Sequence record: MT446396.1
Reading direction: 5' to 3' (one strand)
DNA length: 64,000 bases
Source of the DNA: Escherichia virus TH22
Shown: in pieces, positions 862-55,466 of the stretch
Layout of the letters: each line of letters starts with the position of its first letter
How positions within the stretch are numbered: the stretch's first letter is position 1
The notes under the pieces: model-generated
Database searches by the model: none
What the model was told of the DNA's origin: nothing
What the model saw: the letters and a program-made list of their open reading frames with translations, nothing else
Translations under genes and position numbers: made by a program

Positions 862-1434
862 ATGGCGAGTTTAATTTATCATTACGCGGCAATGAATGCA
901 GGCAAAACAGCTTCATTGCTGACTGCAGCTTATTCCTATAAAGAGCGTGGAATGAGTGTGCTTTTGCTAAAACCTGTTATTGATAATCGGGACTCGGAAT
1001 CTGAAATTAAATCACGTATTGGTATTAGCCAGGAAGCAAACCTGGTAACGGCCGACATGAACCTGTTTGAATTCTATAAATGGGCCGAGTCTCAAAAGGA
1101 TATCCATTGTGTCCTGGTCGATGAAGCTCAATTTTTGTTACCAGAGCAAATTGACCAGTTAGCACGAGTGGTTGATAATTATAATATCCCCGTTATGTGT
1201 TACGGGCTAAGAACAGATTTTCGGGGTCAGTTATTTCCCGGTTCGGCCAGACTTCTGGCTATTTCGGATAAACTGGTTGAATTAAAGGGCGTCTGCCATT
1301 GCGGCCGGAAAGCAACCATGACCGCTCGAGTAATCGACGGTGCTGCTGTAAAGGTCGGCGAGCAAGTATTGGTCGGTGGGAATGAATCGTACGTATCTTT
1401 ATGCAGGAAACATTGGCTCGAATTGACAAGCTGA
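862..1434 (+). CDS. tk: thymidine kinase
   Basis: 190 aa; P-loop AMNAGKTASLL, Zn-ribbon CHCGRKA...C; closely matches T4 Tk. Confidence 0.95.
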   Translation: MASLIYHYAAMNAGKTASLLTAAYSYKERGMSVLLLKPVIDNRDSESEIKSRIGISQEANLVTADMNLFEFYKWAESQKDIHCVLVDEAQFLLPEQIDQLARVVDNYNIPVMCYGLRTDFRGQLFPGSARLLAISDKLVELKGVCHCGRKATMTARVIDGAAVKVGEQVLVGGNESYVSLCRKHWLELTS

Positions 1435-9207: not shown

Positions 9208-9208
9208 T

Positions 9209-9265
9209 GTTTACTTCCAAGGATGGAGGGAGTATAATGAATTCCTACTTTATGAGGAGAACACT
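9209..9265 (+). promoter_or_regulatory. early promoter
   Basis: GTTTAC -35, CCAAGGATGGAGGGAGTATAATG -10. Confidence 0.45.
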
Positions 9266-10545: not shown

Positions 10546-10774
10546 AGAATATCTTGAGACTGCTGATAAGGCGGTCCGTGAATTAACTCTGGCCTATTAT
10601 AAAGAACACGGTAAACTTCCGGATAGTTATTCAGTATTGAAATCTGCTTTAACTCGTTCATATAATAATATGCGTTCAGAAGTTTATGGTATTATGGTCA
10701 AACATAAAGAACAAACCGGTCAATACCCCGATTATACTGAGACCTTCAAACAAGTATTAGGAATTAAGGAATAA
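10517..10774 (+). CDS. hypothetical protein
   Basis: 85-aa ORF. Confidence 0.3.
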
Positions 10775-13273: not shown

Positions 13274-15087
13274 CAATTGAAAACGAAATTGAAGGATTGA
13301 TTCATAAAACTAATAAAGACCTTTTAAACGAGAATGCTAATAAAGATTCTCGTGTTTTTCCAACTCAACGGGACCTTATGGCTGGTATTGTATCTAAACA
13401 CATTGCCAAAAATATGGTCGCGTCTTTTATTATGAAAGCACATGAAAGTGGAATTATTCATTTCCATGATATTGATTATTCCCCTGCTCTTCCATTTACT
13501 AATTGCTGTTTAGTAGATTTAAAAGGAATGCTTGAGAACGGATTTAAGCTTGGTAATGCACAGATTGAAACTCCTAAATCAATCGGTGTTGCTACTGCAA
13601 TTATGGCACAAATTACTGCACAGGTTGCTTCTCACCAATATGGCGGAACGACTTTTGCTAATGTAGACAAAGTATTTTCTCCTTATGTTAAACGTACATA
13701 CGCAAAACATATTGAAGATGCAGAAAAATGGCAAATCACTGATGCATTGAATTATGCCCAATCTAAAACAGAAAAAGACGTATACGATGCATTCCAAGCT
13801 TATGAATATGAAGTAAATACGCTCTTTAGTTCAAATGGGCAAACGCCTTTTGTGACAATTACGTTTGGCACGGGAACTGACTGGACTGAACGAATGATTC
13901 AGAAAGCAATTCTGAAAAATCGTATCAAAGGTCTTGGTCGCGATGGGATAACTCCTATTTTCCCTAAACTTGTTATGTTCGTTGAAGAAGGTGTTAATCT
14001 TTATAAAGACGACCCGAACTATGATATTAAGCAGCTTGCTCTAGAGTGTGCAAGCAAAAGAATGTATCCTGATATTATTTCAGCTAAGAACAATAAAGCT
14101 ATCACTGGTTCATCTATTCCTGTTTCTCCAATGGGTTGCCGTAGTTTCTTGGGCGTATGGAAAGATTCGACTGGTAATGAAATTCTTGATGGACGTAATA
14201 ATCTTGGTGTTGTAACACTGAATCTTCCTCGCATTGCGTTAGATTCTTATATTGGAACACAGTTCAATGAACAGAAATTTATCGAATTGTTCAATGAGCG
14301 AATGGATTTGTGTTTTGAAGCTTTGATGTGTAGAATTAGTTCTTTAAAAGGAGTTAAAGCGACTGTTGCTCCTATTCTTTACCAAGAAGGTGCATTCGGG
14401 GTTCGTCTTAAACCTGATGATGATATAATTGAGTTATTTAAAAACGGTAGAAGTTCAGTGTCTTTGGGATACATTGGTATTCACGAATTGAATATTCTTG
14501 CCGGTCGTGATATTGGGCAAGAAATTTTAACTAAAATGAATGCTCGTCTTAAGCAGTGGACTGAAAGAACCGGTTTTGCTTTTAGTTTGTATTCTACACC
14601 TGCTGAAAACCTTTGTTATCGCTTCTGTAAACTTGATACTGAAAAATATGGAAGTGTAAAAGATGTTACCGATAAAGGATGGTACACTAACAGTTTCCAC
14701 GTTTCAGTAGAAGAAAATATTACTCCGTTTGAAAAGATTTCTCGCGAAGCCCCATATCATTTCATTGCGACAGGTGGTCACATTTCTTATGTTGAACTTC
14801 CTGATATGAAAAATAACTTAAAAGGTCTTGAGGCTGTATGGGATTATGCCGCGCAACATTTAGATTATTTTGGTGTTAATATGCCAGTAGATAAATGTTT
14901 TACGTGTGGAAGTACCCATGAAATGACTCCTACTGAAAACGGATTTGTTTGTTCTATTTGTGGAGAAACTGACCCTAAAAAGATGAACACAATAAGAAGA
15001 ACTTGCGGTTATTTGGGAAATCCGAACGAACGTGGATTTAATCTCGGCAAAAATAAAGAAATCATGCATAGGGTTAAACACCAATGA
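13270..15087 (+). CDS. nrdD: anaerobic ribonucleoside-triphosphate reductase
   Basis: 605 aa; C-terminal Zn ribbon CFTCG...CSICG and glycyl-radical region RTCGYLG. Confidence 0.95.
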   Translation: MTIENEIEGLIHKTNKDLLNENANKDSRVFPTQRDLMAGIVSKHIAKNMVASFIMKAHESGIIHFHDIDYSPALPFTNCCLVDLKGMLENGFKLGNAQIETPKSIGVATAIMAQITAQVASHQYGGTTFANVDKVFSPYVKRTYAKHIEDAEKWQITDALNYAQSKTEKDVYDAFQAYEYEVNTLFSSNGQTPFVTITFGTGTDWTERMIQKAILKNRIKGLGRDGITPIFPKLVMFVEEGVNLYKDDPNYDIKQLALECASKRMYPDIISAKNNKAITGSSIPVSPMGCRSFLGVWKDSTGNEILDGRNNLGVVTLNLPRIALDSYIGTQFNEQKFIELFNERMDLCFEALMCRISSLKGVKATVAPILYQEGAFGVRLKPDDDIIELFKNGRSSVSLGYIGIHELNILAGRDIGQEILTKMNARLKQWTERTGFAFSLYSTPAENLCYRFCKLDTEKYGSVKDVTDKGWYTNSFHVSVEENITPFEKISREAPYHFIATGGHISYVELPDMKNNLKGLEAVWDYAAQHLDYFGVNMPVDKCFTCGSTHEMTPTENGFVCSICGETDPKKMNTIRRTCGYLGNPNERGFNLGKNKEIMHRVKHQ

Positions 15088-15554
15088 ATTATGATAGATT
15101 TTATCCTTGTGATTTTGTGAATGGCCCTGGATGCAGGGTCGTTCTTTTCGTTACAGGTTGTTTGCATAAATGTGAAGGGTGTTATAATAAATCAACATGG
15201 AATGCTAGAAATGGGGTTCCATTCACTGGTGAAACACTAGAACAATTAATTGAATGTTTGAATAATGATTATATAGAAGGATTAACTATAACTGGAGGAG
15301 ACCCTCTCTATCCTGATAACCGAGATGTTATTCACTCTGTGGTTCAAACTGTTAAAAATCTTTATCCAAATAAAAGCATTTGGATGTGGACAGGATATAA
15401 GTTTGAAGATATTAAACAACTAGAAATGCTTAAATATGTTGATGTTATTATTGATGGGAAGTATGAGAAAAATCTTCCGACCAAAAAACTGTGGCGAGGG
15501 TCAGATAATCAGCGACTTTGGTCAAATACCGATGGGGTGTGGAAACATGATTAA
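15084..15554 (+). CDS. nrdG: anaerobic RNR activating enzyme (radical SAM)
   Basis: 156 aa; CxxxCxxC-type cluster CLHKCEGCYN; coupled to nrdD. Confidence 0.9.
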   Translation: MNYDRFYPCDFVNGPGCRVVLFVTGCLHKCEGCYNKSTWNARNGVPFTGETLEQLIECLNNDYIEGLTITGGDPLYPDNRDVIHSVVQTVKNLYPNKSIWMWTGYKFEDIKQLEMLKYVDVIIDGKYEKNLPTKKLWRGSDNQRLWSNTDGVWKHD

Positions 15555-18832: not shown

Positions 18833-19390
18833 ATGAACGAAATTAAATTAACCAAGAATAACTATGTAAATAATAAAGAGCTTCTGAAAGCTATTTCGGA
18901 GTGGAAACAGAAGCTGAATGCGAACACCGACCCGAATAAAATTATTCGCCAGAACGACGTTATTGGTCTGGCAATTATGCTTATAGCCGAAGGTCTTAGC
19001 AAACGTTTCAACTTCTCCGGATATACCCAATCCTGGAAGCAAGAAATGATTGCAGACGGAATTGAGGCCGCAATAAAAGGTCTTCACAACTTCGACGAAA
19101 CAAAATACGATAATCCACATGCTTACATAACAATGGCTTGCTTCAATGCTTTCGTTCAGCGTATCAAAAAAGAACGTAAAGAAATGGCAAAGAAATATAG
19201 CTACTTCGTCCATAACGTGTATGATTCACGTGATGACGATATGGTGGCTCTGGCTGATGAAACATTTATCCAGGACATCTATGACAAAATGACACAGTAC
19301 GAATCCTCTTTAGTTAAAGCGCCAGGGTCTGATAAGAGCGCCAAAGATAAAGAAGGTGATTTGGATTTTTTATATGGAACATCAATTTGA
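18833..19390 (+). CDS. 55: late-transcription sigma factor gp55
   Basis: 185 aa; near-collinear with T4 gp55 (NYVNNKELL...[36 protein letters not shown]). Confidence 0.9.
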
Positions 19391-19607
19391 TATTACCGAT
19401 TTTTTAGATAAAATCGAGGAAGACTTTACTGCGCTCCCATATTTCATTAAACTTTATCTGCGAGACATAAAAGGTCTTCCAATTGATATCGACCCTTTAA
19501 ACGTCCGGAATCTGGAATTTACTTCACCGGATAATAACGTTGATTACCGTTATCATGTAGATAATGCTAATCTATATTTTACAATTGAGTTAACTCCCAA
19601 GGATTAA
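19374..19607 (+). CDS. hypothetical protein
   Basis: 77 aa; occupies the T4 alpha-gt interval. Confidence 0.3.
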
Positions 19608-19608
19608 T

Positions 19609-19920
19609 ATGCAAGCTCCAGATATTTCTCAACTGACCGATAAGCAGATTGAAGAAGCACAGGAACGTCTCGAAGAAGCGAACGCACTCGAAGCACAGAG
19701 TCAAGCGGCAAAGATTCTGAAAAAGAATGCTCGTGAAATTGCACGACTGAATAAGCATGCTCAAGGGGCAGTGCTGGAAAACAATTTTGAAGCATACAAA
19801 TATGCTTTAGTTAAACTGCGTGGAATTTACCGCCAACCAGTTACGGAAGACCTGATTAAGTTGATGTGGGAAACTACTCGCAAACAAATTTGGGAAATCG
19901 TAAATGGCATTAGTAAATAA
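19609..19920 (+). CDS. hypothetical protein
   Basis: 103-aa helical ORF. Confidence 0.35.
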   Translation: MQAPDISQLTDKQIEEAQERLEEANALEAQSQAAKILKKNAREIARLNKHAQGAVLENNFEAYKYALVKLRGIYRQPVTEDLIKLMWETTRKQIWEIVNGISK

Positions 19921-20104
19921 ACCTTTTAAACGGCTTCTTGTTGGAGCCGCTTTCAGACTTCGCTCATATGGTAATATCTGTATCAAGCAGACTGAAACCG
20001 AATATAAAATGGTTGGGCAGTATTCCGATGAAATTTTTCGGATTGAGCCTGTAGCCAAGGTTTGGGTGGATTCACATCAACTTAAGAAGTGGTGGCAACG
20101 ATGA
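19904..20104 (+). CDS. hypothetical protein
   Basis: 66-aa ORF. Confidence 0.3.
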   Translation: MALVNKPFKRLLVGAAFRLRSYGNICIKQTETEYKMVGQYSDEIFRIEPVAKVWVDSHQLKKWWQR

Positions 20105-20259
20105 TAACATGGACTGCCGGTTAATGAATGACGAATACGAAAAAGTTTAAGAGGTGTATTATGACTATTGATGATGTAAATATTCTTACTTCCGACGAAT
20201 TAAAACGATTGGGTAATATATTTCAAGACGAACATCCTGATTTTTAAGAGGTCATATGA

Positions 20260-20433
20260 ATGACGAATTCGACGGATTTTGATAAGATTAAATCTGATAA
20301 AAATGAGATGATACTTCAATTTGAAGCCGCTCGTATTAAAGCAGAAAATGAAGGTACTATTACCCATAAGAAAATCAAGTTCAAGTCTAATCGCGAACCT
20401 CTGTATGGTGTATTAATTGGAAAGGAAGCCTAG
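20260..20433 (+). CDS. hypothetical small protein
   Basis: 57 aa; below track cutoff. Confidence 0.3.
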   Translation: MTNSTDFDKIKSDKNEMILQFEAARIKAENEGTITHKKIKFKSNREPLYGVLIGKEA

Positions 20434-20446
20434 TGCTTCCTTTTTG
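20423..20446 (+). terminator. intrinsic terminator
   Basis: GGAAGCCTAGTGCTTCC hairpin + TTTTT. Confidence 0.6.
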
Positions 20447-20629
20447 CTTTATATTCGGGATGATAAAATGAACCAACTGAGGAGATTATATGGAATTATT
20501 TTTAGGATATGTTGTGTTATTCATGGCATTCTACACATTCACACGAGCTTGTTGGATAGGATTCTTTTCTACTCCTGACGGGTTCATTTCAATAATTTTA
20601 TTTTGCACTGCGATAACGGCGCTTGGCTT

Positions 20630-21649
20630 ATGAAAATTTTAAATTTAGGTGATTGGCACTTGGGTGTCAAAGCTGACGACCCATGGGCTCAAAACATTCA
20701 ACGTGATGGTATTTTACAGGCGATTGCATATTCCAAAGCAAATGGAATTAAAGTCTGGATTCAATATGGTGATATTTTTGACGTCCGTAAGGCTGTAACG
20801 CATAAGACAATGGAATTCAGCCGCGAGATTATGGAACTCCTTCGTGAAGCAGGAATTACTATGCACACGATAGTCGGGAACCATGACATGAATCTGAAGA
20901 ATAAGATTCATCCTAATGCTATCACCGAACTCCTGAATAAGTATGACCATGTTAAAATCTACGACAAGCCAACGACTGTTGATTTTGACGGTTGTCAGAT
21001 TGATATGATTCCATGGATGTGTGACGAGAACGCGACTGACATTCATCAACACATCAAAACTTCTGGTGCCGAATATTGCATCGGTCACTGGGAATTAACC
21101 GGGTTTTATTTCTATAAAGGATTGAAATCCCACGGGCTTGAGCCTGATTTCCTTAAGAAGTACAAGCAAGTTTGGTCTGGGCACTTCCATACCATTTCGG
21201 AAGCTGCGAACGTTAAGTACATAGGAACGCCATGGACATTAACAGCAGGTGATGAGAATGACCCGCGCGGATTCTGGGAATTTGATACAGAAACCGAAGA
21301 GATGAAATTTATTCCGAATGAAACCACTTGGCATCGGAAGATTTTCTATCCAAACGAAACTATTAACTACGACGACTTCAAAGACTTATCAGTCCGTGTT
21401 ATTGTAGAAAAAGTCGATAAAGACCTGACCAAGTTCGAATCTGAATTAGAAAAGCGTGTACATGAATTGCGTGTTGTCAATAAGGTTGATAACAGTGTTG
21501 ATACGACTGACTCCGAAGAAGAGTTAGACATAAAACGCTTAACTGATATGATGGCAGAATATATTGATGCATTACCTGACACCAATGAGAAAGAATCAAA
21601 AGCTCTTAAAGCATTGGCCAACAAATTATATCTTGAGGTGCAACCGTGA
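20630..21649 (+). CDS. 47: recombination endonuclease subunit gp47 (Mre11-like)
   Basis: 339 aa from ATG; phosphoesterase motifs LGDWHLG, GDIFD, GNHD; collinear with T4 gp47. Confidence 0.9.
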   Translation: MKILNLGDWHLGVKADDPWAQNIQRDGILQAIAYSKANGIKVWIQYGDIFDVRKAVTHKTMEFSREIMELLREAGITMHTIVGNHDMNLKNKIHPNAITELLNKYDHVKIYDKPTTVDFDGCQIDMIPWMCDENATDIHQHIKTSGAEYCIGHWELTGFYFYKGLKSHGLEPDFLKKYKQVWSGHFHTISEAANVKYIGTPWTLTAGDENDPRGFWEFDTETEEMKFIPNETTWHRKIFYPNETINYDDFKDLSVRVIVEKVDKDLTKFESELEKRVHELRVVNKVDNSVDTTDSEEELDIKRLTDMMAEYIDALPDTNEKESKALKALANKLYLEVQP

Positions 21650-27209: not shown

Positions 27210-29924
27210 ATGCAAGAATTTTATTTAACTATCGAACAAATCGGTGACAACCTACTCGAACGATACATTGACAAGAATGGTCATGAACGTGTTCGTGAAA
27301 TCCCCTATGCCCCGTGCCTGTTTATGCATGCCCGCGAAGACCAAGCTGCAAAATATACAGACATCTATAATAAAGGTTGCGTGAAAAAAGAATTCGATTC
27401 CATGCGTGATGCATCCCAGTGGATGAAGCGAATGAATGACATGGGTCTCGAAGCTATGGGTATGGATGACTTTAAACTCGCATACTTGTCCGACCGTTAC
27501 CCGCACGAAATCAAATACGATTCAAGTAAAATCCGTGTGGCTAACTTCGATATCGAGGTGACATCTCCTGATGGGTTCCCTGAGCCGTCTGAAGCACGTC
27601 ACCCTATTGATGCCCTGACGCACTATGATTCGATAGACGATAAATTCTATGTCTTTGACCTTTTGGGCTCACCATACGCCACTGTGGAGCAATGGTCTAT
27701 CGATATTGCTGCTAAGCTGCAAGAAGATGGCGGTGATGAAGTCCCTGAAGAAATCCTGGAAAAAATTGTTTATATGGCTTTCGATTCAGAAGAAGAAATG
27801 CTCCAACAGTATTTGGTATTCTGGAACGAGAAAACTCCGGTTATGTTAACTGGTTGGAACATCGAGAAGTTTGATATTCCATATATCTACAACCGCCTTA
27901 AAAATGTATTTGGTGAAGCTACGGCAAAACGTTTGAGTCCACATCGTCGTACAAAAGTTAAGGTCATTAACAACGGTTTCGGTGAAGAACAAGAAATCGT
28001 TCAGATTCTGGGTATCTCTGTTCTGGATTATCTGGACCTGTATAAAAAGTTCAGCTTCACAAACCAACCGTCTTATTCGTTGGATTATGTTGCGGAATCT
28101 GAGCTGGGTGTTGGTAAACTCCCGTATGATGGCCCGATTTCTAAACTGCGCGAATCAAATCACCAACGGTATATTTCTTATAACATCATCGATGTTTATC
28201 GTGTTGTACAGATTGACCGTAAGCGTCAGTTTATTAACCTTAGCCAGTCAATGGGTTATTATGCAAAAATGCAGATTCAGTCTGTATTCAGCCCAATCAA
28301 AACTTGGGATGCGATTATCTTTAACAGCCTGAAGACTCAAAATAAAGTCATTCCGGAAACCAAATCACATGTTCGTCAATCGTTCCCAGGTGCATTTGTT
28401 AAGGAACCGATTCCGAACGCATACAAATACGTTATGAGCTGTGACTTAACATCTCTGTATCCGAGCATCATCCGACAGATTAACATTAGTCCAGAAACGA
28501 TTGCCGGGTCATTTACACCAGCGCCAATGTACGAATACATCGCAGGAACTGCTGACCGTCCATCTGATACATTTAGTTGTGCTCCAAACGGTATGATGTA
28601 TTTTAAAGATGTTGCGGGTATTATTCCAACAGAAGTCACCAAGGTGTTTAATCAGCGTAAAGAGCACAAAGGTTATATGCTTGCGGCTCAACGTAATGGT
28701 GAACTGATTAAGGAAGCCCTGCGTAATCCAGGAACTGGTACAACCGAGCCTGAAGTTGATTATCGTTATGACTTTGATGATAATATGAAAACAACCTTGC
28801 ATGGTCTGAATCAAACAGTTCTGAATGGTATGTTGTACAAAGCGCAGATGGAAGAAGTTGCAGGCATGACCGCACAGATTAACCGTAAACTGCTTATCAA
28901 CAGTTGTTATGGCGCTCTGGGTAATATCTGGTTCCGTTACTTTGACCTGCGAAATGCAACCGCGATTACATCTTTCGGACAACTTACATTGCAGTGGATT
29001 GAGCGTAAAGTTAACGAATATTTTGATAGTGTTTGTGGTACAAGTGGTGAAACATATGTATTCTATGGCGATACTGACTCCATTTATATCCAGTGCGATA
29101 ACCTGATTAAAAAGGTTGGTGGCGAATCTAAATTCCGCGATACAAACCACCTGGTTGACTTCATGGACAAGTTTGCGAAAGACCGTCTGGAACCAGCAAT
29201 CGATAAAGCTTTCCGTGAGCTGGCTGAATACATGAACAACAAACAGCACCTTATGTTTATGGACCGTGAAGCGATTGCATGTCCTCCGTTGGGTTCTAAA
29301 GGTGTTGGTGGATTCTGGACGGCGAAGAAGCGTTATGCTCTGAACGTGTACGATATGGAAGGCACCCGATATGCTGTTCCGAAACTGAAAATCATGGGTC
29401 TGGAAACTCAAAAGTCGAGTACGCCAAAAGCATGTCAGAAAGCCCTGAAAGAATGTATCCGTCGCATGCTGCAAGAAGGTGAAGAATCTCTGCAGACATA
29501 CTTCAAGGAATTCAATAAGGAATTTAATGAGCTTAACTACATGACAATCGCAGGTGTATCATCGGTTAACAACATCCAGAAATATAATGAGGGTGGTTTC
29601 CCTGGATTTAAGTGTCCGGCTCATATCAAAGGCGTGCTCGCTTACATGCGTGCAACCAAAGGGTTGAAGACTGTTCCACAAATCATGGAAGGGGAAAAGG
29701 TGTATGTGCTTCCTCTTAAAGTTGGTAACCCGTTTGGCGAAACTGTGATTGCATGGCCATCAGGGATTGAACTCCCGATTGAAATTCGTGACCAGGTTCT
29801 GCAGTGGATGGACTACAACACACTGTTCCAGAAGACTTTTGTCAAACCGTTAACGGGGTTCTCTGAAGCAGCAAAGGTTGATTACGAAAAGAAAGCAACT
29901 CTTTTTGATATGTTTGACTTTTAA
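27210..29924 (+). CDS. 43: DNA polymerase gp43 (family B, 3'-5' exonuclease)
   Basis: 904 aa; exo motif FDIEV; polymerase motifs YPSII, YGDTDS. Confidence 0.95.
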   Translation: MQEFYLTIEQIGDNLLERYIDKNGHERVREIPYAPCLFMHAREDQAAKYTDIYNKGCVKKEFDSMRDASQWMKRMNDMGLEAMGMDDFKLAYLSDRYPHEIKYDSSKIRVANFDIEVTSPDGFPEPSEARHPIDALTHYDSIDDKFYVFDLLGSPYATVEQWSIDIAAKLQEDGGDEVPEEILEKIVYMAFDSEEEMLQQYLVFWNEKTPVMLTGWNIEKFDIPYIYNRLKNVFGEATAKRLSPHRRTKVKVINNGFGEEQEIVQILGISVLDYLDLYKKFSFTNQPSYSLDYVAESELGVGKLPYDGPISKLRESNHQRYISYNIIDVYRVVQIDRKRQFINLSQSMGYYAKMQIQSVFSPIKTWDAIIFNSLKTQNKVIPETKSHVRQSFPGAFVKEPIPNAYKYVMSCDLTSLYPSIIRQINISPETIAGSFTPAPMYEYIAGTADRPSDTFSCAPNGMMYFKDVAGIIPTEVTKVFNQRKEHKGYMLAAQRNGELIKEALRNPGTGTTEPEVDYRYDFDDNMKTTLHGLNQTVLNGMLYKAQMEEVAGMTAQINRKLLINSCYGALGNIWFRYFDLRNATAITSFGQLTLQWIERKVNEYFDSVCGTSGETYVFYGDTDSIYIQCDNLIKKVGGESKFRDTNHLVDFMDKFAKDRLEPAIDKAFRELAEYMNNKQHLMFMDREAIACPPLGSKGVGGFWTAKKRYALNVYDMEGTRYAVPKLKIMGLETQKSSTPKACQKALKECIRRMLQEGEESLQTYFKEFNKEFNELNYMTIAGVSSVNNIQKYNEGGFPGFKCPAHIKGVLAYMRATKGLKTVPQIMEGEKVYVLPLKVGNPFGETVIAWPSGIELPIEIRDQVLQWMDYNTLFQKTFVKPLTGFSEAAKVDYEKKATLFDMFDF

Positions 29925-29925
29925 G

Positions 29926-29996
29926 TGTTTACAACGGCAAAGGATTGCCGTATGATTACTCCATCAACTACTGATGATTAAATTAAGGATATTAAA
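29926..29996 (+). promoter_or_regulatory. early promoter with family-A leader
   Basis: GTTTACA, TATGATTACT, CCATCAACTACTGATGA. Confidence 0.5.
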
Positions 29997-30239
29997 ATGG
30001 AAACATTAATTGCAGGTACTGTTGTTCTTGGTGCTGGTTCTTTCTTCCTGGCTGCACTGGCATATTTTCTGCCGTGGATTATCGCGCTACTGCGAGGAAC
30101 CAAAAGTAATTGCGGAATCTTCTTTGTTAACCTCCTGTTAGGTTGGACAATGGTCGGGTGGTTTATTGCATTTATCTGGGCACTCGTTGCTGAACGTAAA
30201 TCAAACGCACAAGTAATTATCATCAAGGAAACCAAATGA
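29997..30239 (+). CDS. imm: superinfection immunity membrane protein (Imm-like)
   Basis: 80-aa two-helix membrane protein immediately downstream of gene 43, as T4 imm. Confidence 0.45.
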   Translation: METLIAGTVVLGAGSFFLAALAYFLPWIIALLRGTKSNCGIFFVNLLLGWTMVGWFIAFIWALVAERKSNAQVIIIKETK

Positions 30240-30379
30240 AGATGATTACAATTATTGTACTGATTGCATTTTTTGGTATGTCAATCTATTGGGCAATAAT
30301 GACTCCACATATGATTCCAACTTTAATTTTGGGTTGGGTATTTTTGGGGCTCCAAGCCCGCTATGAATGTTTTAATTGA
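30236..30379 (+). CDS. hypothetical small membrane protein
   Basis: 47 aa hydrophobic; ATGA overlap with imm; below track cutoff. Confidence 0.3.
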   Translation: MKMITIIVLIAFFGMSIYWAIMTPHMIPTLILGWVFLGLQARYECFN

Positions 30380-30389
30380 GGAAAATACA

Positions 30390-30893
30390 ATGAAAAAGTT
30401 AGCTATCGCAGCTGTTATACTGTTATCTGGTTGTGCTTACCAGGGTGATGTAGTTAATGCCAGTGAGATTGGTAAAGCGCGAATTGCTGCAGACCGTCAG
30501 GTGCATAATGGTTCCTTTGATTTCAAAGGTGGTACTGGACTTATCTACAAACGCGACAACAATCAATGTGGAAATAACTGCGCGAAATATGCTCAACAAG
30601 AAATTGAGTACAAACGCGAGCAAGCTGCGAAGCATGATGAAGTAATCGCTAAATTAGAAGCAGAAACTAAGCGACAAAATGACTTGGATACTGTTAACCA
30701 GATTTCACAGGTCTGTATGTCATACATCAATATGCAGATAAACATCATGCGCGCGGAAGCTTATCAGGCAGCAGAGGCTGGTTCTCCAAAAGCTAATGAG
30801 TATCGCGATATGTATCAGCGTTCTGCTCAAAACCGTCTGAGCTATATTAATAAATGTGTAGCTAAAGAGAAAGCACGCCAAGGTATTAACTAA
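30390..30893 (+). CDS. putative lipoprotein
   Basis: signal peptide with lipobox LLSGC; coiled-coil-like C-terminus; occupies the interval where T4 has 42/beta-gt. Confidence 0.5.
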   Translation: MKKLAIAAVILLSGCAYQGDVVNASEIGKARIAADRQVHNGSFDFKGGTGLIYKRDNNQCGNNCAKYAQQEIEYKREQAAKHDEVIAKLEAETKRQNDLDTVNQISQVCMSYINMQINIMRAEAYQAAEAGSPKANEYRDMYQRSAQNRLSYINKCVAKEKARQGIN

Positions 30894-30978
30894 CATTAAT
30901 TGCTCTAAAAATACAGTGATATAATTATCCTATCTTAAACCTGTGAGAAAAATATAATGGTGCCTATGGAAAAAATGA

Positions 30979-32157
30979 ATGTCTATTGCAGATTTGAAAT
31001 CCCGTTTGATTAAAGCTTCTACATCCAAAATGACTGCGACTCTTACTAAGTCCAAGTTTTTTAATGATAAAGATGTAGTTCGTACAAAAATCCCGATGCT
31101 GAACATTGCAATCAGCGGTGCACTAGATGGTGGTATGCAGTCAGGTTTGACTATTTTTGCTGGTCCGTCAAAACACTTTAAATCCAATATGGGTTTAACG
31201 ATGGTCTCTGCATATATGAACAAATACCCCGATGCAATCTGTTTGTTCTATGATTCAGAATTTGGTATCACAGAAGCATATCTTCGTGCAATGAAAGTTG
31301 ACCCGGAACGTGTTATTCACACACCAATCCAGTCGGTTGAACAATTGAAAGTTGATATGGTTAACCAGCTTGAAGCAATTGAGCGTGGTGAAAAAGTCAT
31401 TATCTTTATTGACTCAATCGGTAACATGGCGTCTAAAAAAGAAACAGAAGATGCGATGAACGAAAAAGTCGTTGGCGATATGACTCGCGCTAAATCCCTG
31501 AAATCTCTATTCCGTATTGTTACCCCATATTTTAGTATCAAGGATATCCCTTGTGTCGCGGTTAACCATACAATTGAGACGATTGAGATGTACAGCAAAA
31601 CCGTTATGACCGGTGGTACAGGTGTTATGTATTCTGCAGACACCGTATTCATTATCGGTAAACGTCAGATTAAAGAAACTGGTAAAGAACTTGAAGGTTT
31701 CCAATTTGTTCTGAACGCCGAAAAATCTCGTATGGTCAAAGAGAAAAGTAAATTCTTCATTGATGTAAAATTCGATGGGGGTATTGACCCGTATTCTGGC
31801 CTGCTTGATATGGCAATGGAAATTGGATTTGTGGTGAAACCGAAAGTTGGTTGGTATAACCGTGAATATCTTGATGTTGAGACCGGTGAAATGGTCCGCG
31901 AAGAAAAATCATGGCGTGCAAAAGATACTAACTGTACCGAATTCTGGGGTCCATTGTTCAAGCACGAACCTTTCCGTGATGCAATCAAACGACATTACCA
32001 GCTGGGTGCAATCGATAGCAATGCTGTTGTTGACGCCGAAGTTGATGCGCTTATTGCCTCCAAGGTTGAAAAATACTCTGCCCCTGAAGGTAAGGCAAAA
32101 CCATCTGCGGCAGATATCGAAAACGATTTAGATATGATGGAAGACCTTGATGAATGA
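30979..32157 (+). CDS. uvsX: recombinase UvsX (RecA-like)
   Basis: 392 aa; Walker A GPSKHFKS; collinear with T4 UvsX. Confidence 0.95.
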   Translation: MSIADLKSRLIKASTSKMTATLTKSKFFNDKDVVRTKIPMLNIAISGALDGGMQSGLTIFAGPSKHFKSNMGLTMVSAYMNKYPDAICLFYDSEFGITEAYLRAMKVDPERVIHTPIQSVEQLKVDMVNQLEAIERGEKVIIFIDSIGNMASKKETEDAMNEKVVGDMTRAKSLKSLFRIVTPYFSIKDIPCVAVNHTIETIEMYSKTVMTGGTGVMYSADTVFIIGKRQIKETGKELEGFQFVLNAEKSRMVKEKSKFFIDVKFDGGIDPYSGLLDMAMEIGFVVKPKVGWYNREYLDVETGEMVREEKSWRAKDTNCTEFWGPLFKHEPFRDAIKRHYQLGAIDSNAVVDAEVDALIASKVEKYSAPEGKAKPSAADIENDLDMMEDLDE

Positions 32158-32491
32158 TATCGATTTATCTGATTTAGATAATTTCGAGAAAGATGCGGAG
32201 GGAGCTAAGGCTCCTTCTGTGCCTTACTACGAAAAAAGTTTGGAGATTATCCGGCAATCCATGGGAACCGTACGACAGGAAATTCTGTTATCACTCCCTG
32301 ATGGGTCCAATCACATTGTGTACGTAACCGGAATTAAAATTGAACCATCTGGAAAAGTTTCAGTTGATTTCGGCACCCCTTCTGAAGACCGCAAAGCGGA
32401 GCTTGCAGTGCATGTAGAAAAGTGTGTTACAATGCAAATACAAGATGAAATTGATAAGATTAAAATGAAAAAGAGGTGGTGGAAGTGGTAG
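32147..32491 (+). CDS. 40: gp40-like head vertex assembly protein (by synteny)
   Basis: 114-aa ORF between uvsX and 41. Confidence 0.5.
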   Translation: MMNDIDLSDLDNFEKDAEGAKAPSVPYYEKSLEIIRQSMGTVRQEILLSLPDGSNHIVYVTGIKIEPSGKVSVDFGTPSEDRKAELAVHVEKCVTMQIQDEIDKIKMKKRWWKW

Positions 32492-33915
32492 AAACTATTT
32501 TATCCCAGCTACTCTTTAACAAGGAATATTTTGTTAAAGTCTGGCCATATCTGAATAGCACATATTTTGAAAAGGGTCCCGCGAAGACCCTTTTTAATAC
32601 GATTAACGAACACGTAAAAGAATATCAAGCTGTACCAACTAAGACTGCACTTGATATTGCACTTGACAACTCTGACCTTTCTGAAGTCGAATATGAAGGC
32701 ACAAAGAAACTTTTAGGAGTCCTGGCCGATACTCCAGAAGACCAGGAATGGTTGGTTAGAGAAACCGAAAAGTATGTACAGAAGTCTGCGATGTTCAATG
32801 CCACATCCAGGATTATCGAAATCCAGAGTAATGCCGAACTTCCTAAAGATAAACGTGATAAACGAATCCCGGATATCGGTGCTATCCCTGACATCATGCG
32901 TGATGCATTGTCCATCTGTTTTGATTCTGCCCTTGGTCATGACTGGTTAAACGATTACGAGGCTCGATTCCAGACTTATCTGAACAAATCGAAGAAAGTT
33001 CCGTTCCGCATTAACATCCTGAATAAAATTACGAAAGGCGGGGTTGAGTACGGTACAGAGAACGTTTTACTAGCCGGGACGAATGTCGGTAAATCTCTGG
33101 GGCTTTGTTCGTTAGCGGCTGACTATCTTCAGACTGGTCATAACGTTCTTTATATAAGCATGGAAATGGCCGAAGAAGTATGTGCCAAACGTATTGATGC
33201 CAACTTGCTGGATGTATCTCTGGATGATATTGATGAAGGTCATATATCATGGGCGGAATATAAAGCTAAGATGGAAAAATGGCGTGCTTCCGGGACTCTC
33301 GGGACTCTGAAGATAAAACAATATCCAACTGGTGGTGCTCATGCGGATACCTTCCGTGCATTACTGAACGAGTACAAACTGAAGCAAGGGTTTGTACCGG
33401 ATGTGATTATTGTTGACTACCTGGCAATCTGTGCAAGCTCAAGACTGAAAACGTTTACCGAAAACAGTTACGGCCTGATTAAGATGGTTGCAGAAGAACT
33501 TCGTGGTCTGGCAGTTGAGAAAAATGTGGTCTTGTGGACTGCAGCGCAGACAACCAGGGGCGCGAACGTTGCAGCCGAGATTGATATGGCTGACATTGCA
33601 GAATCCTTTGGTATTGCTCACACGGCTGACTTTATGCTGGGTGTTGTTGAGACCGAAGAATTCGCTCAAATGGGGCTGCAGTTAATCAAACAGCTTAAGT
33701 CTCGTTATGGTGATAAGAACTACTATAATAAATTCAAGATGGGTGTTAAGAAAGGTAATCAGCGCTGGTATGAGGTTGATGATGATTCGGCTCCTAAACA
33801 AGGCCCTACGGTTAAAGAAGCCACCGGTGAGATGAATCGCCAGGCCGAAATGAATCGACAAACCAGGGTCAACAGGAGCGACCTGGATGACCTTGCTGCT
33901 CAAATGAAATTTTAA
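32485..33915 (+). CDS. 41: replicative DNA helicase gp41 (DnaB-like)
   Basis: 476 aa from GTG with AAGAGG SD; Walker A GTNVGKS; collinear with T4 gp41. Confidence 0.9.
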   Translation: MVETILSQLLFNKEYFVKVWPYLNSTYFEKGPAKTLFNTINEHVKEYQAVPTKTALDIALDNSDLSEVEYEGTKKLLGVLADTPEDQEWLVRETEKYVQKSAMFNATSRIIEIQSNAELPKDKRDKRIPDIGAIPDIMRDALSICFDSALGHDWLNDYEARFQTYLNKSKKVPFRINILNKITKGGVEYGTENVLLAGTNVGKSLGLCSLAADYLQTGHNVLYISMEMAEEVCAKRIDANLLDVSLDDIDEGHISWAEYKAKMEKWRASGTLGTLKIKQYPTGGAHADTFRALLNEYKLKQGFVPDVIIVDYLAICASSRLKTFTENSYGLIKMVAEELRGLAVEKNVVLWTAAQTTRGANVAAEIDMADIAESFGIAHTADFMLGVVETEEFAQMGLQLIKQLKSRYGDKNYYNKFKMGVKKGNQRWYEVDDDSAPKQGPTVKEATGEMNRQAEMNRQTRVNRSDLDDLAAQMKF

Positions 33916-37654: not shown

Positions 37655-37852
37655 CTATATAAGGCCGATTAATGCCAGTAAAATATCTACAACTGATTCG
37701 AGTGCAATGACTGGTAATATAACACCATGTGTCAATGCAACAGGGGCAACAACGAAGTTCCAGAGTAGAACTAAACAGAGTATCGAAAGGACCAGAATCG
37801 TTCGCTTACGACTGCCTTTGATGGCTTGAATTAGACTAGATAGTTTGAGCAT
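37655..37852 (-). CDS. hypothetical small membrane protein (opposite strand)
   Basis: 65 aa from ATG with GGAGGA SD (track ORF 37655..37882 -); two hydrophobic helices; CATAAATA late-promoter-like element upstream on the - strand. Confidence 0.4.
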   Translation of the reverse strand: MLKLSSLIQAIKGSRKRTILVLSILCLVLLWNFVVAPVALTHGVILPVIALESVVDILLALIGLI

Positions 37853-37879
37853 ATATCCTCCTTCCGTGTATTTATGCTT

Positions 37880-37937
37880 CAAACCAATATGATATAATTA
37901 ACATACAAAATAACATGAATTGATAAGGAAAAATATA
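37880..37937 (+). promoter_or_regulatory. promoter upstream of gene 56
   Basis: TATAAT at 37893-37898. Confidence 0.4.
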
Positions 37938-38456
37938 ATGGCTCATTTTAATGAATGTTCACAACTGATTGCCGGTGTTGATAAAGCTGAAGAAGCTTAT
38001 GACAATGCAATTACAAAAGGTACTGACCCGCTGCAGATTATGCTTGATATGCAGAAATCATTGCAAGTTCGTCTGGCTACTGAAAAACCAGAATATAACT
38101 CACATCCAGATGAATTGGCTACTGCAGGTGATGTTGTTGCATGGCTTCGTAACCAGAAAGATTATGTCGACGACGAATTCCGTGAACTTCTGACTTCTCT
38201 CGGTGGTATGTCTAATGGCGAGAAAGCTGCATCTAGTGTATGGAAACCATGGAAAGTCCAACATGCTGAATTCCGTAATCGTCGTATTGATGAGTTGTCT
38301 CCCGAAGACCAGCTCGAAATTAAATTTGAGATGATTGATATCCTGCACTTTGTTCTGAACATGTTCCATGGCCTTGGACTGACTGCAGAAGAAATCTTTA
38401 AATTGTATTACCTGAAAAACGCTGAGAACTTTGCTCGTCAGGACCGGGGTTATTAA
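37938..38456 (+). CDS. 56: dCTPase/dUTPase-type NTP pyrophosphatase gp56 (MazG-like)
   Basis: 172 aa from MAHFNEC; collinear with T4 gp56 (EFRELLTSLG, MIDILHFVLN, FARQDRGY). Confidence 0.8.
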   Translation: MAHFNECSQLIAGVDKAEEAYDNAITKGTDPLQIMLDMQKSLQVRLATEKPEYNSHPDELATAGDVVAWLRNQKDYVDDEFRELLTSLGGMSNGEKAASSVWKPWKVQHAEFRNRRIDELSPEDQLEIKFEMIDILHFVLNMFHGLGLTAEEIFKLYYLKNAENFARQDRGY

Positions 38457-38807: not shown

Positions 38808-39005
38808 ATGTTAAACCGTTGGATTAAACCAAACAAAGCTTTAGATGAAATTATTGCGCATGATGTCCATTTTAAGTATGGTCTGGGTGTGTTTGATGAA
38901 GTTATCGTACATTCATTCATGATGCATGACGATGACTCTTTAGAATTCAATATTGAAATCAGTTATGATGATGGTCAAGTTGAATTTAAACGAGGTTTCC
39001 TATGA
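38808..39005 (+). CDS. hypothetical protein
   Basis: 65-aa ORF. Confidence 0.3.
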   Translation: MLNRWIKPNKALDEIIAHDVHFKYGLGVFDEVIVHSFMMHDDDSLEFNIEISYDDGQVEFKRGFL

Positions 39006-39343
39006 TTAGTTGGCTCAAGAATTTATTCAAGACTAAACCAAACGAGGGCGTGGTTCCAGTTAGCCCGCCAGATGTTAAGCTAAGAGAATATGCTTACATG
39101 GGTGATGGTATGATGGAAGAAGTGGTCAAATCGAAATCAAAAGACCTATATTCTACAATGTCAGAAGAAGACTTACAAAAACGTTTAACTCGACTGCAAG
39201 AACAAAGAGCCCAAGCGCAAAGCAGTATCGATACTACTTCGATTGTGGTCACCGCTGCCGCAGTTAGTTCGTGGACCGGTGATTCGTCTTATTCCTCCTA
39301 TGATTCGGGAAGCTGTGATTCGTCTTCCAGCTCGTGTGATTAA
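39002..39343 (+). CDS. hypothetical protein with Ser/Cys-rich low-complexity C-terminus
   Basis: 113 aa ending SSYSSYDSGSCDSSSSSCD. Confidence 0.3.
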   Translation: MISWLKNLFKTKPNEGVVPVSPPDVKLREYAYMGDGMMEEVVKSKSKDLYSTMSEEDLQKRLTRLQEQRAQAQSSIDTTSIVVTAAAVSSWTGDSSYSSYDSGSCDSSSSSCD

Positions 39344-39538
39344 ATGAGAATTACAAGTTGGCTTAAAGATTGGTTGGTTACTCCAGGGATTGATGATTCC
39401 TGGGTGGCCAGAGCCGAGGAAGAAATGCAGCGCGAAGCCGAAGAATGGGCCGTTAACGGGCTTAAAGCCATGCAGGAAAAGAAGACCGAACGAGCAGCGC
39501 TTAAACTGATGCGTGATATCTACGGAGATAAATCATGA
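39344..39538 (+). CDS. hypothetical protein
   Basis: 64-aa ORF. Confidence 0.3.
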
Positions 39539-39684
39539 CACAAGAAGATGCTGAACGCCGAGCAAAAGAAGCACTGGATTTGCTTTTGAAAATTGGCAGT
39601 AAAATGATGGAAGAAAACGAAAAGTACATCAAGGAAAATAAAGTTCCTGATGGTCCATTAGTCGGTAAGAGGAAAACATTATGA
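39535..39684 (+). CDS. hypothetical small protein
   Basis: 49 aa; below track cutoff. Confidence 0.25.
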
Positions 39685-40163
39685 AAGTATATGAATTAGA
39701 ATTCTATGTCCGTGATTCGGCAGGTCAAACACGACCTTACGATGCTACCGCATGCCTTATCATGGTTTACAATGGCATGGATTCGGTCACTGCATTGGAA
39801 ACAAAATTAATGAACTTGACGATGCCAGAAAACGTTATGCTGAAGGTATTTCATAGAAAAAACGTTGATGTTGCCGAAGGGTGTCCGTTTACTGTTTCTG
39901 AAGCTCTGCACATCAAAGGCTATCGTCACCCAGACCTTTATGGCGAAGATACCATTTTCTATAAAGATAGAGATAAAATGGCCACTGAACGTCTTCAAGG
40001 TCGCACATATCTGATTTCCACTACCGACGACCTTGCTGAAGTCGAACGTCAGATTTGGAAACACTTTGATATTGGTCTGCGCTTTACTTTAACAGAAGAA
40101 GCTCTGCACGATACTAAAGTCCGAGCTCGTATGTATGGTTACGGCCCTATCGGTGGTTACTAA
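39681..40163 (+). CDS. hypothetical protein
   Basis: 160-aa ORF upstream of the mod genes (T4 mrh region). Confidence 0.35.
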
Positions 40164-44371: not shown

Positions 44372-44609
44372 AGTACATAAAGAAGATTTAGATAATCTTA
44401 TCTATGGTATTCAGGACGCGGTTGAATTTTTCGAAGATAATCCGACTATCGTCGTGCAGGGTAATTACGTTTTGCTGGAACTGAATCTTATTCGGAAACG
44501 TATGGCCGCGATTGAATATTTTAACAATGAAGAGCCAGGGATTTTTATCTCCGACTATGTTGCTGGTGAAATTCAGAAATTAAAAGAGATGTGCGATGGT
44601 TGCTGGTGA
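44364..44609 (+). CDS. hypothetical protein (3' end extended by tandem duplication)
   Basis: 81 aa from ATG overlapping dda stop; C-terminus runs through the 40-bp duplication. Confidence 0.35.
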   Translation: MYKVHKEDLDNLIYGIQDAVEFFEDNPTIVVQGNYVLLELNLIRKRMAAIEYFNNEEPGIFISDYVAGEIQKLKEMCDGCW

Positions 44610-44640
44610 AATTCAAAAATTAAAAGAGATGTGCGATGAT
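44561..44640 (+). repeat. tandem direct duplication, 2 x 40 bp (38/40 identical)
   Basis: TGCTGGTGAAATTCAGAAATTAAAAGAGATGTGCGATGGT followed by TGCTGGTGAAATTCAAAAATTAAAAGAGATGTGCGATGAT; copy 2 carries the dexA SD and ATG. Confidence 0.9.
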
Positions 44641-45319
44641 TGATGCTATTATTGACTTTGAAACTCTGGGAAACGGCTCGAAGGGAGCCGTTATTGACCT
44701 GGCTCTGATTACATTCGAATCTGACCCTGCTATTGTGGAATCATTCGAAACCCTGGTTAATCGCGGCAAACGTATCAAGTTTAGCCTTGAATACCAAAAA
44801 GGTAAGCGTCTGTTCGATACAACAACCATGGGTTGGTGGAAAAAGCAATCAGCAGAAGCCCGTGTTAACTTGGCTCCTTCTGCGCAAGATGTTGATACTC
44901 TGACCGGTATCCAACAGGCAATTGATTATCTGAATGGTAATGGAATTAACAAATACGAAAGCCTTATGTGGTGTCGTGGAATGTCTTTTGACTTCCCGTT
45001 GTTTGTTGACCTTATCCGTGACCTACAGCGCAATGAGGGTATTCCCGAGCGTGAATTGAATACCTATGGCCTGGAGCCGGTTGTATTCTGGAACCAGCGA
45101 GATATCAGGACAGCAATCGAAGCCCTATCACTCGTCCGTAAGATGTGTGAAACTCCATTACCAAAGGGGACTTTAGATGGATTTGTGGCGCATGATTCGG
45201 TGCATGACTGCGCGAAAGATATTTTGATGCTTAAGTACGCCCAGCGCTATGCTCTTGGTTTAGATGAAGTTCCTTCCGAAGAAGATGCAGACCCGTTATC
45301 TTTACCGAAAAAACGATAA
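44636..45319 (+). CDS. dexA: exonuclease A (DnaQ/DEDD-like)
   Basis: 227 aa; exo I motif IIDFETLG, C-terminal HDSVHDC; downstream of dda as in T4. Confidence 0.8.
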   Translation: MIDAIIDFETLGNGSKGAVIDLALITFESDPAIVESFETLVNRGKRIKFSLEYQKGKRLFDTTTMGWWKKQSAEARVNLAPSAQDVDTLTGIQQAIDYLNGNGINKYESLMWCRGMSFDFPLFVDLIRDLQRNEGIPERELNTYGLEPVVFWNQRDIRTAIEALSLVRKMCETPLPKGTLDGFVAHDSVHDCAKDILMLKYAQRYALGLDEVPSEEDADPLSLPKKR

Positions 45320-54547: not shown

Positions 54548-54868
54548 ATGATTAACTATATGAACGTTGGCGATGAATCTATTAACGAAATTCGATTGCA
54601 TGGTAATCATGTTGCGGATATTGTTTATTGTGTTGATTGTCATTATGCTTCCACAAAGTCAACTGGCCGGTTATATGCGAGAGACATCATTCTTGCAACG
54701 AAAGAAGAACTTCGTAGTCTGGACCATTCTACTCTAGCCGAAAGTGCCAGAATTTATTATGGCGTCGTTCATGTAGACAAAGTTTATATTGGCAGTGATT
54801 ATCAAGAGCAAGCTGAGCAAAATTCTTTGGATGTTGTCGAAAAATCCGATATGTATTTTAAAGGATGA
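54548..54868 (+). CDS. hypothetical protein
   Basis: 106-aa ORF. Confidence 0.3.
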   Translation: MINYMNVGDESINEIRLHGNHVADIVYCVDCHYASTKSTGRLYARDIILATKEELRSLDHSTLAESARIYYGVVHVDKVYIGSDYQEQAEQNSLDVVEKSDMYFKG

Positions 54869-54872
54869 GCTG

Positions 54873-55466
54873 ATGATTCAGAAGAGTAAAACATGGGAGC
54901 ATCTGAAAAAGATGCCCTCCTTTCTTTATACAAAGGAAGACTTAACCCCCGAATCCCTGCAAAAGATTGTAGACACTGCCAGGTATTCATTGCGTAAAGA
55001 CCCAGGTCAGGACCGTGAGCAAGTCATGCAAAGATGTATGGTGGCTACAATGGCTGAACAAGCTATTGCTAAATGGACTTCAGGTTTTTTATGTGGTGGC
55101 GATGAAGATTACGATAATCCTTATTCCTTTGCATTTGATGTAGTTTCGAAGGAAGGGGTGAGAATCGAAGTCAAGACCCACCAGTCTGGTTCCAAATGGA
55201 TATCCGTGCATACTGGTCACCAGGGTGATTATCCGCATGGTTACGGGATTAATCTTGGTCCTTTTATGCAGCACAAGCTTGCCGACCTTATGATTATGCT
55301 CGATGTAAAAGAGACTCTCAAAGGTTGTAGATTTAAACCAAAATTCCTTGCTGGACCTGGTGCTTTCGTTCCTGAGTCTGGTCTTGTGCAGAAGTCACAA
55401 GGGGATGGTTGGTACCTCCGTTCTTGTTCAGAAGAAAAATTTCCCTATCACCGGTTTACAAGCTGA
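54873..55466 (+). CDS. hypothetical protein with PD-(D/E)xK-like motif (candidate nuclease)
   Basis: 197 aa; FDVVSKEGVRIEVK fits the D-x(n)-E-x-K pattern; in the interval where T4 has denB. Confidence 0.35.
   Translation: MIQKSKTWEHLKKMPSFLYTKEDLTPESLQKIVDTARYSLRKDPGQDREQVMQRCMVATMAEQAIAKWTSGFLCGGDEDYDNPYSFAFDVVSKEGVRIEVKTHQSGSKWISVHTGHQGDYPHGYGINLGPFMQHKLADLMIMLDVKETLKGCRFKPKFLAGPGAFVPESGLVQKSQGDGWYLRSCSEEKFPYHRFTS

Follow-up and report, generated by a model that had tools for sequence, protein, structure and literature searches.

An Asn177-to-Asp thymidylate synthase homolog as a candidate source of 5-methylcytosine in gapriverviruses that lack the T-even hypermodification genes

Cytosine modification in T4-like phages and the TH22 locus

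In phage T4 (Tequatrovirus) DNA carries glucosylated 5-hydroxymethylcytosine (hmC), and the genes for the dCMP hydroxymethylase gp42 and the glucosyltransferase beta-gt lie between gene 43 and uvsX, with alpha-gt between genes 55 and 47. RB69, JS98 and DLP3 carry an arabinosyl-5-hydroxycytosine module, in which a thymidylate synthase (TS) homolog is accompanied by a nucleotidyltransferase-kinase and a TMK-like kinase (PMC13326640), while RB49 is an ordinary-cytosine DNA phage (PMC8056088). Gapriverviruses stand alone among the Tevenvirinae in that denA, denB, alc and 56 are retained although an hmC synthase is missing (Nikulin & Zimin 2021, PMC8056088; Viruses 2025, PMC12115623), and both papers leave the base in their DNA open. 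The subject here is Escherichia virus TH22 (record MT446396.1), a T4-like coliphage of the genus Gaprivervirus (Straboviridae, Tevenvirinae), of which a stretch of 64,000 nucleotides, the window, was analyzed around the interval between gene 43 and uvsX. The absence of modification genes together with retained denB and alc is already published; what is added is 5-methylcytosine (5mC), made through an Asn-to-Asp change in the product of td, as the candidate base. Complete substitution of cytosine by 5mC in virion DNA, with no sugar attached, is the reading favored by the sequence comparisons below, at a probability of roughly 0.7.

TH22 shares with T4 its architecture and gene order (45-44-62-regA-43-imm...uvsX-40-41 and 55...47), the series 45-44-62-regA-43, interval, uvsX-40-41 being that of T4 read in the direction of transcription. 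Also common to both are gp56, the dNMP kinase gp1, DenA, DenB, Alc, Cd and Frd. Unlike T4, the lineage of the window phage lacks gp42, alpha-gt, beta-gt, segA, mobB and dam, and its td product is predicted to modify dCMP, with a methyl rather than a hydroxymethyl group as the predicted addition and no glycosylation. In JS98, of the sister genus Dhakavirus, the interval begins as it does in TH22, with imm, a 47-aa peptide and a lipoprotein gene in the same order, and T4 glucosyltransferases are absent from both phages. The two differ between the lipoprotein gene and uvsX, where JS98 has five extra genes, orf42 to orf38 (~4.2 kb), and TH22 has a junction of 85 nt; all five genes, with the nucleotidyltransferase-kinase and the TMK-like kinase of the arabinosyl module, are absent here. 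JS98 orf39 is a divergent TS-family protein with 24.5% identity to T4 gp42 (E=8e-8) and the signature Glu143/Asn169/Asp177 (E. coli numbering). That signature has been shown experimentally to denote 5-hydroxy-dCMP synthases of the arabinosyl-5-hydroxycytosine pathway, and Dhakaviruses are named among its carriers (NAR 2026, PMC13326640). The 43-uvsX interval of TH22 represents the T-even cytosine-hypermodification locus in its empty state. This sister-genus filling, which is not the 42/beta-gt pair of T4, was missed by the initial annotation of the window.

Statements about the whole genome, td included, were read in close relatives 93-100% identical to the window phage, chiefly Escherichia phage UPEC07, which was assembled (170,004 bp; record MW250787.1) and served as a proxy for the genome outside the window. 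In tblastn searches with T4 gp42, alpha-gt and beta-gt, the best E value was 0.26 for the window and 0.7 for the complete UPEC07 genome, and no match to a DNA alpha- or beta-glucosyltransferase was found at E<0.8 in either. The five proteins encoded by JS98 orf42 to orf38 had no significant tblastn match in UPEC07. A divergent gp42 elsewhere in UPEC07 was considered and rejected, as both T4 gp42 and the far more divergent JS98 orf39 were used as queries and neither gave a match. UPEC07 has no second TS-family gene besides td. The lineage, as represented by its nearest complete genome, lacks both a dCMP hydroxymethylase or hydroxylase of the gp42 family and a DNA glycosyltransferase. The initial annotation had reported gene 42, alpha-gt and beta-gt missing at both canonical loci; this agrees with the tblastn results and with the ORF content of the two intervals, and the genome-wide search in UPEC07 extends it. 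A gene 42 homolog elsewhere in the genome exists in a loose sense, in that td encodes a member of the TS family whose predicted substrate is dCMP, but td is not a gp42 ortholog.

Other sources of modification were also considered. No T4 Dam homolog and, in a crude regex screen, no C5-methyltransferase motif IV was found in the genome, and post-replicative methylation was rejected. Two matches to [DNS]PP[YFW], one within denA and one in an antisense frame, were judged to be chance. At the T4 position of dam, between genes 61 and 56, the window has a 75-aa ORF on the minus strand (37655-37882), a hypothetical protein in UPEC07 (159898-160095). When all UPEC07 ORFs of at least 60 aa were compared with JS98, minus its 90-120 kb region of structural genes, a lineage-specific replacement enzyme was not recovered; the comparison gave small ORFs, homing endonucleases, internal head proteins and NrdD/NrdG only. 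The small Gaprivervirus-specific ORFs, ten in number (91-147 aa), carry no Pfam domain. The larger window ORFs at 4775-5785 (RlaP/NrdC.11), 7259-8107, 8275-9207 (DUF7235) and 9266-10255 were set aside as an explanation of the difference because all have T4 or JS98 homologs.

Asp177 in the sole thymidylate-synthase-fold gene

The gene on which the 5mC reading turns is:

UPEC07 32227-33087 (outside the window): td, overlapping frd by 4 nt and upstream of nrdA

UPEC07 Td reads LGLPFDIGSYG where T4 Td (PDB 1tis), JS98 Td and E. coli ThyA read LGLPFNIASYA. The change is Asn177 to Asp and was read in UPEC07, VR7 and P8. Residue 177 is the sole change among the 12 residues within 6 Å of dUMP C5 (list taken from PMC13326640). 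UPEC07 Td keeps Leu143, the catalytic Cys146, His147, Gln165, Ser167, Asp169 and the TS C-terminus (PMAV), and its alignment with T4 Td is gap-free around the site (E=1e-127; 65% identity). Each of the four 90%-identity clusters of Gaprivervirus Td has Asp177, as does VR7, and 32/32 Gaprivervirus td records of the phage collection fall within the identity range of these four clusters. Asn177 was found in 114/114 other close Tevenvirinae Td. With dN/dS of 0.03-0.13, Gaprivervirus td is under purifying selection, and its Asp codon is GAT in UPEC07 and P8 but GAC in VR7, a synonymous difference. Some 20 other substitutions in the Gaprivervirus proteins, A179G, A182G and F149L among them, are specific to the lineage. 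Td of JS98 and T4 share 84% identity, but UPEC07 Td reaches no more than 65-69% with either, a low value that would fit an altered function or an early divergence. A metagenomic sister lineage, represented by a 292-aa Td (P0060) encoded in the T4-like frd-td pair of contig SRR24146912_91236 (L009:3953-4831), has Asp177 as well. With 67-69% identity to Gaprivervirus Td and many of its lineage-specific substitutions in common, P0060 shows that the Asp-type clade extends beyond the named genus.

The same single active-site substitution has been made in the laboratory in otherwise canonical enzymes, E. coli ThyA N177D and L. casei TS N229D, with dCMP methylase as the outcome (Liu & Santi 1992; Hardy & Nalivaika 1992, as cited in PMC8670742 and PMC13326640). 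The phage version differs in being natural, fixed throughout the genus, under purifying selection and accompanied by the further lineage substitutions. Because td carries this change, its product is predicted, by analogy with the laboratory mutants, to convert dCMP to 5-methyl-dCMP. Of seven natural Asp-type TS homologs, five gave 5-methyl-deoxycytidine (5mdC) in E. coli when expressed together with T4 gp1 (2024 preprint, bioRxiv 10.1101/2024.12.05.627091). Asp177 is also present in T4 gp42 and in the 5-hydroxy-dCMP synthases. Residue 143 correlates with the product, Leu with a methyl and Asp or Glu with a hydroxymethyl group, and Asn169 correlates with hydroxylation (PMC13326640). T4 gp42 combines Asp177 with Asp/Glu143, whereas the sole TS-fold gene of the gapriverviruses keeps Leu143; the TS homolog of the JS98 system has Asn169, whereas UPEC07 Td has Asp169.

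Complete 5mC substitution through a TS-homolog dCMP methyltransferase is known in Xanthomonas phage Xp12 and in Pseudomonas phage PaMx74. Gaprivervirus Td shares with these enzymes the TS fold, Asp177 and Asp169, with a dihydrofolate reductase gene beside the TS gene and a gene of the dCMP-deaminase family in the genome. Of the traits expected of a methyl product it has Leu143, Asp169, the C-terminal PMAV and the 4-nt overlap with frd. Xp12, in contrast, is a siphovirus in which an apparatus of the DenB/Alc/gp56 type is not annotated, and its deaminase gene adjoins the TS gene, whereas cd lies ~11 kb from td in UPEC07, that is, not within 3 kb. Gaprivervirus Td is not an ortholog of the Xp12 enzyme; it derives recently from the td of T-even phages and is in effect a natural N177D. 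If the Asp-type reading is true, td is predicted to be mislabeled 'thymidylate synthase' in annotated Gaprivervirus records.

Other T4-like phages offer an independent contrast. Acinetobacter phage 133 (td at L011:30516-31463) has DenB, Alc and gp56 together with Td-Asp177, and no gp42-like gene was found in the 149.8 of 159.8 kb searched. Acinetobacter phage ZZ1 (td at L019:25346-26278) has Td-Asp177 as well, with DenB and Alc in the part read, and it too lacks gp42 (PMC8056088). Both are listed in the literature as lacking any base-modification enzyme. Their Td also have Gln165 changed to Met, as in gp42-type enzymes. Acj9 (L021:24271-25233), in which gene 42 and an arabinose cluster are present, has Td with Asn177 and Gln165, and RB49 Td has Asn177. 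These associations suggest that 5mC substitution may have arisen at least twice in T4-like phages.

Retained cytosine exclusion and the identity of the base

Part of the apparatus that acts against ordinary cytosine in T4, and a salvage kinase, lie within the window:

37938..38456, + strand: gp56 dCTPase/dUTPase (MazG-like), 68% identity to T4 gp56 over 171 aa (E=1e-78)
54831..55466, + strand: denB endonuclease IV homolog, match to phrog_1360 'DenB-like DNA endonuclease IV' (E=1e-79)
862..1434, + strand: tk thymidine kinase, a 190-aa ORF, identified by a Pfam TK match on the identical-length gene in a relative's locus (L015) and by the UPEC07 annotation

The gp56 assignment is supported by matches to phrog_173 and Pfam dUTPase_2, and DenB (UPEC07 7161-7796) is full length, the match spanning profile positions 1-203 of 203. 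By PHROGs, gp56 and DenB in the window and DenA, Alc (39279-39848), gp1 (103239-103916) and Cd (44477-45058) elsewhere in UPEC07 are all full length. In T4, gp56 removes dCTP and supplies dCMP, and DenB cuts cytosine-containing single-stranded DNA; DenB, Alc, DenA, gp56, gp1 and Cd make sense there only where phage DNA is without ordinary cytosine. gp1, DenB and Alc, the three proteins that have to distinguish modified from unmodified cytosine in nucleotides or DNA, rank among the orthologs that diverge most from JS98, at 47%, 44% and 49% identity against a genome median of 77% and 85% for gp56. Just downstream of denB, an ORF at 55409-55789 (91 aa from an internal ATG) has no JS98 homolog, no Pfam domain and PHROG matches only to families of unknown function (phrog_17571).

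Experimental, though indirect, evidence on the base comes from VR7, the type phage of Gaprivervirus. The legend to Suppl. Fig. S4 of Gordeeva et al. (2019, PMC6326788), which concerns restriction digests with and without T4 beta-glucosyltransferase, states that VR7 'has modified cytosines'. As described there, VR7 DNA is not glycosylated, T4147 with its hmC forms a separate entry, and BREX (bacteriophage exclusion) fully blocks VR7, as it does non-glycosylated phages. The initial annotation had noted that a MazG-like gp56 is retained, as is the case, and had expected unmodified or differently modified cytosine. Of these, 'unmodified' is poorly supported because the exclusion apparatus is kept full length and VR7 is reported to be modified; 'differently modified' is supported, and the Asn177-to-Asp change in td makes it specific. 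That the DNA contains a modified, non-glycosylated cytosine is highly probable.

The following route would account for these observations. Hydrolysis of dCTP and dCDP by gp56 would yield dCMP, which Asp-type Td would methylate to 5-methyl-dCMP at the expense of methylene-tetrahydrofolate; Frd, whose translation is coupled to that of Td, would recycle the dihydrofolate. gp1 and host NDP kinase would produce 5-methyl-dCTP, and gp43 would place it in DNA, so that unsugared 5mC replaces cytosine. DenA and DenB would then degrade, and Alc silence, host cytosine DNA only. Relief of Alc action by cytosine methylation has been reported (Kashlev 1993, as cited in PMC8056088). For dTMP the phage could draw on host ThyA, on host-DNA breakdown with salvage by Tk, or on deamination of 5-methyl-dC nucleotides by Cd; a comparable route to dTTP, through deamination of 5-methyl-dCTP, has been proposed for Xp12-type phages (bioRxiv 10.1101/2024.12.05.627091). 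On the wider scale we think it reasonably probable that gapriverviruses, and independently Acinetobacter phages 133 and ZZ1, replace all cytosine by 5mC by means of a td-derived dCMP methyltransferase, a natural equivalent of N177D, without a gp42/glycosylation module and with gp56, DenB, DenA and Alc retained, which would then discriminate cytosine from 5mC. No prior statement that Asn-to-Asp td yields 5mC in gapriverviruses was found in the literature searched, coverage of which was incomplete.

Several points weigh against 5mC. A Td that acts as dCMP methylase would leave the phage without a thymidylate synthase of its own, which is an extra assumption, though a tolerable one because T4 td is dispensable. 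td lies outside the window, and the claim is carried over to TH22 from its relatives. The validated Xp12 enzyme has Asn143 and Pro147, as well as Leu165, and only ~31% identity to Gaprivervirus Td; because of these residues the rules for positions 143 and 147 are tendencies, not absolutes. Two of the seven natural Asp-type homologs yielded no 5mdC in the heterologous assay (bioRxiv 10.1101/2024.12.05.627091). The VR7 legend states 'modified cytosines' without naming the base (PMC6326788), and no chemical identification of the base of any Gaprivervirus was found in the literature searched. Finally, the divergence of gp1, DenB and Alc may reflect co-adaptation or simply fast evolution.

Three other explanations were weighed. 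DNA with ordinary cytosine, as in RB49 and RB43, the modification genes having been lost and the roles of gp56, DenA, DenB and Alc relaxed or altered, would be consistent with the failure to find gp42 or a glycosyltransferase in the window or in UPEC07. RB49-type phages do combine cytosine DNA with gp56 and DenA (PMC8056088; PMC12115623 Table 4). However, T4-like phages with cytosine DNA lack DenB and Alc (PMC12115623 Table 4), both of which are full length here, and VR7 DNA is reported to be modified (legend in PMC6326788). RB49 Td keeps Asn, whereas the Gaprivervirus lineage fixed Asp under purifying selection, and ordinary cytosine is accordingly given very little credence. Unglycosylated hmC, or 5-hydroxycytosine, made either by Asp-type Td acting as a hydroxymethylase or by an unrecognised enzyme, draws on the fact that Asp177 is common to T4 gp42, the 5-hydroxy-dCMP synthases and Gaprivervirus Td, and on the response of VR7 to BREX, which in the published comparison is like that of T4147, with its sugarless hmC (PMC6326788). 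It is unlikely, since Td keeps Leu143, His147, Asp169 and the TS C-terminus, whereas gp42 has Asp143/Thr147 and the 5-hydroxy synthases have Glu143/Asn169 (rules in PMC13326640). The translational coupling of frd and td is also kept, as expected of a reaction that produces dihydrofolate, and the VR7 legend, after the T4 beta-glucosyltransferase test, sets 'T4147 is hydroxymethylated' apart from 'VR7 has modified cytosines' (PMC6326788).

A further Gaprivervirus protein might make some other non-canonical base (PMC8056088, PMC12115623), the change in Td being unrelated or auxiliary. Both papers leave room for this, as do the ~10 small lineage-specific ORFs of no assigned function. It too seems improbable: apart from homing endonucleases, internal head proteins and NrdD/NrdG, the lineage-specific ORFs recovered in the JS98 comparison are of 91-147 aa and have no Pfam match, no methyltransferase motif was found, and the correlation with Td-Asp recurs independently in the Acinetobacter phages.

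If complete 5mC substitution is correct, gapriverviruses would add a third cytosine chemistry to the T4-like phages and would be the first group of coliphages with this type of DNA, and the switch in DNA chemistry would have come about by one substitution in a housekeeping gene together with the loss of a whole set of modification genes. Such phages would be predicted to be sensitive to McrA, McrBC, Mrr and BREX and to resist 5mC-sensitive type II enzymes, and T4-family variants of DenB and Alc would be expected to tell cytosine from 5mC. There would also be consequences for sequencing and annotation. The Asn-to-Asp reading of td offers a concrete, testable answer on the Gaprivervirus base, over which published authors withhold a recommendation for therapeutic use.

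Gene content of the two intervals and genome relationships

The 43-uvsX interval and its boundaries contain the following features:

27210..29924, + strand: gene 43 DNA polymerase, left boundary (904-aa ORF; annotated DNA polymerase in UPEC07, SP18 and VR20)
29997..30239, + strand: imm, superinfection immunity membrane protein of 80 aa (Pfam PF14373, Imm_superinfect, E=1e-17)
30236..30379, + strand: 47-aa hydrophobic membrane peptide (phrog_3610, E=1e-26; homolog of JS98 orf44 and RB69 orf054c)
30363/30390..30893, + strand: lipoprotein (lipobox LLSGC read in the sequence; phrog_1754, E=7e-46)
30894..30978, no strand: lipoprotein gene-uvsX junction of 85 nt, the site of the five-gene module in JS98
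30979..32157, + strand: uvsX recombinase, right boundary (392-aa ORF; annotations of matching records)

Imm shares 52% of its residues with T4 Imm and 68% with JS98 Imm, scores 64.2 bits against a Pfam gathering cut-off of 27.9, and lies beside gene 43 in synteny with T4 and JS98. The 47-aa peptide is 59% identical to JS98 orf44 and has no Pfam match. The lipoprotein is a homolog of JS98 orf43 (52% identity) and resembles T4 Imm.1 in its signal peptide only; its start is probably the ATG at 30390 (MKKLAIAAVILLSGC). A description of the interval as imm-like membrane proteins and a lipoprotein, given in the initial annotation, holds for imm and the lipoprotein but not for the 47-aa peptide, which is not imm-like. 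All three are ordinary early accessory genes with no role in modification. A promoter and terminator scan of the interval gave nothing that exceeds shuffled expectation.

The interval between genes 55 and 47 is the alpha-gt slot of T4. It had been described as holding only small ORFs (19391-20629), and this is borne out by the ORF list and by tblastn with T4 a-gt.2 to a-gt.5 and 47.1:

19356..20633, + strand: whole 55-47 interval
19356-19607, + strand: a-gt.5-like (tblastn with the T4 protein)
19609-19920, + strand: a-gt.4-like (Pfam DUF2654)
19904-20104, + strand: a-gt.3-like (tblastn with the T4 protein)
20128-20247, + strand: 39-aa ORF (ORF list)
20260-20433, + strand: a-gt.2-like (tblastn with the T4 protein)
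20490-20633, + strand: 47.1 (tblastn with the T4 protein)

Neither a glucosyltransferase nor mobB is present in this interval.

Over the stretch from gene 43 to uvsX (27210-32157), Escherichia phages UPEC07 and TH55 match at 100% identity and SP18, VR20 and ~30 other records at 95-98%, and the gene content of the stretch is identical in all 32 phage records that cover the region at 95-100% identity. Positions 4050-64000 of the window are ~99% identical to UPEC07. The first ~3.9 kb (1-3872) are 86-93% identical to UPEC07 vs 98% to UPEC01, and the best DNA match to positions 1-6000 is 98.3%. By these matches the genome is a recombinational mosaic of gapriverviruses.

The product names of coding sequences in MW250787.1 are unfit as evidence of function because they are largely propagated errors. 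The NrdC.x and ModA.x neighbors carry the names of adjacent genes; for example, window 7259-10774 is called 'thioredoxin' and 39002-40163 'molybdenum ABC transporter'. The genes of an anaerobic ribonucleotide reductase, nrdD (605 aa) and nrdG (156 aa), are located at 13270-15554 of the window. They have no tblastn match in the JS98 regions compared, and JS98 runs from 55.8 straight to gene 49. About 2 kb upstream of the position that corresponds to the window start, UPEC01 has a 92-aa gene (L015:5249-5527) with a match to the Acb2/Tad1-hairpin Pfam family, an anti-CBASS/anti-Thoeris sponge. This Gaprivervirus gene lies between ipIII-like genes and regB.

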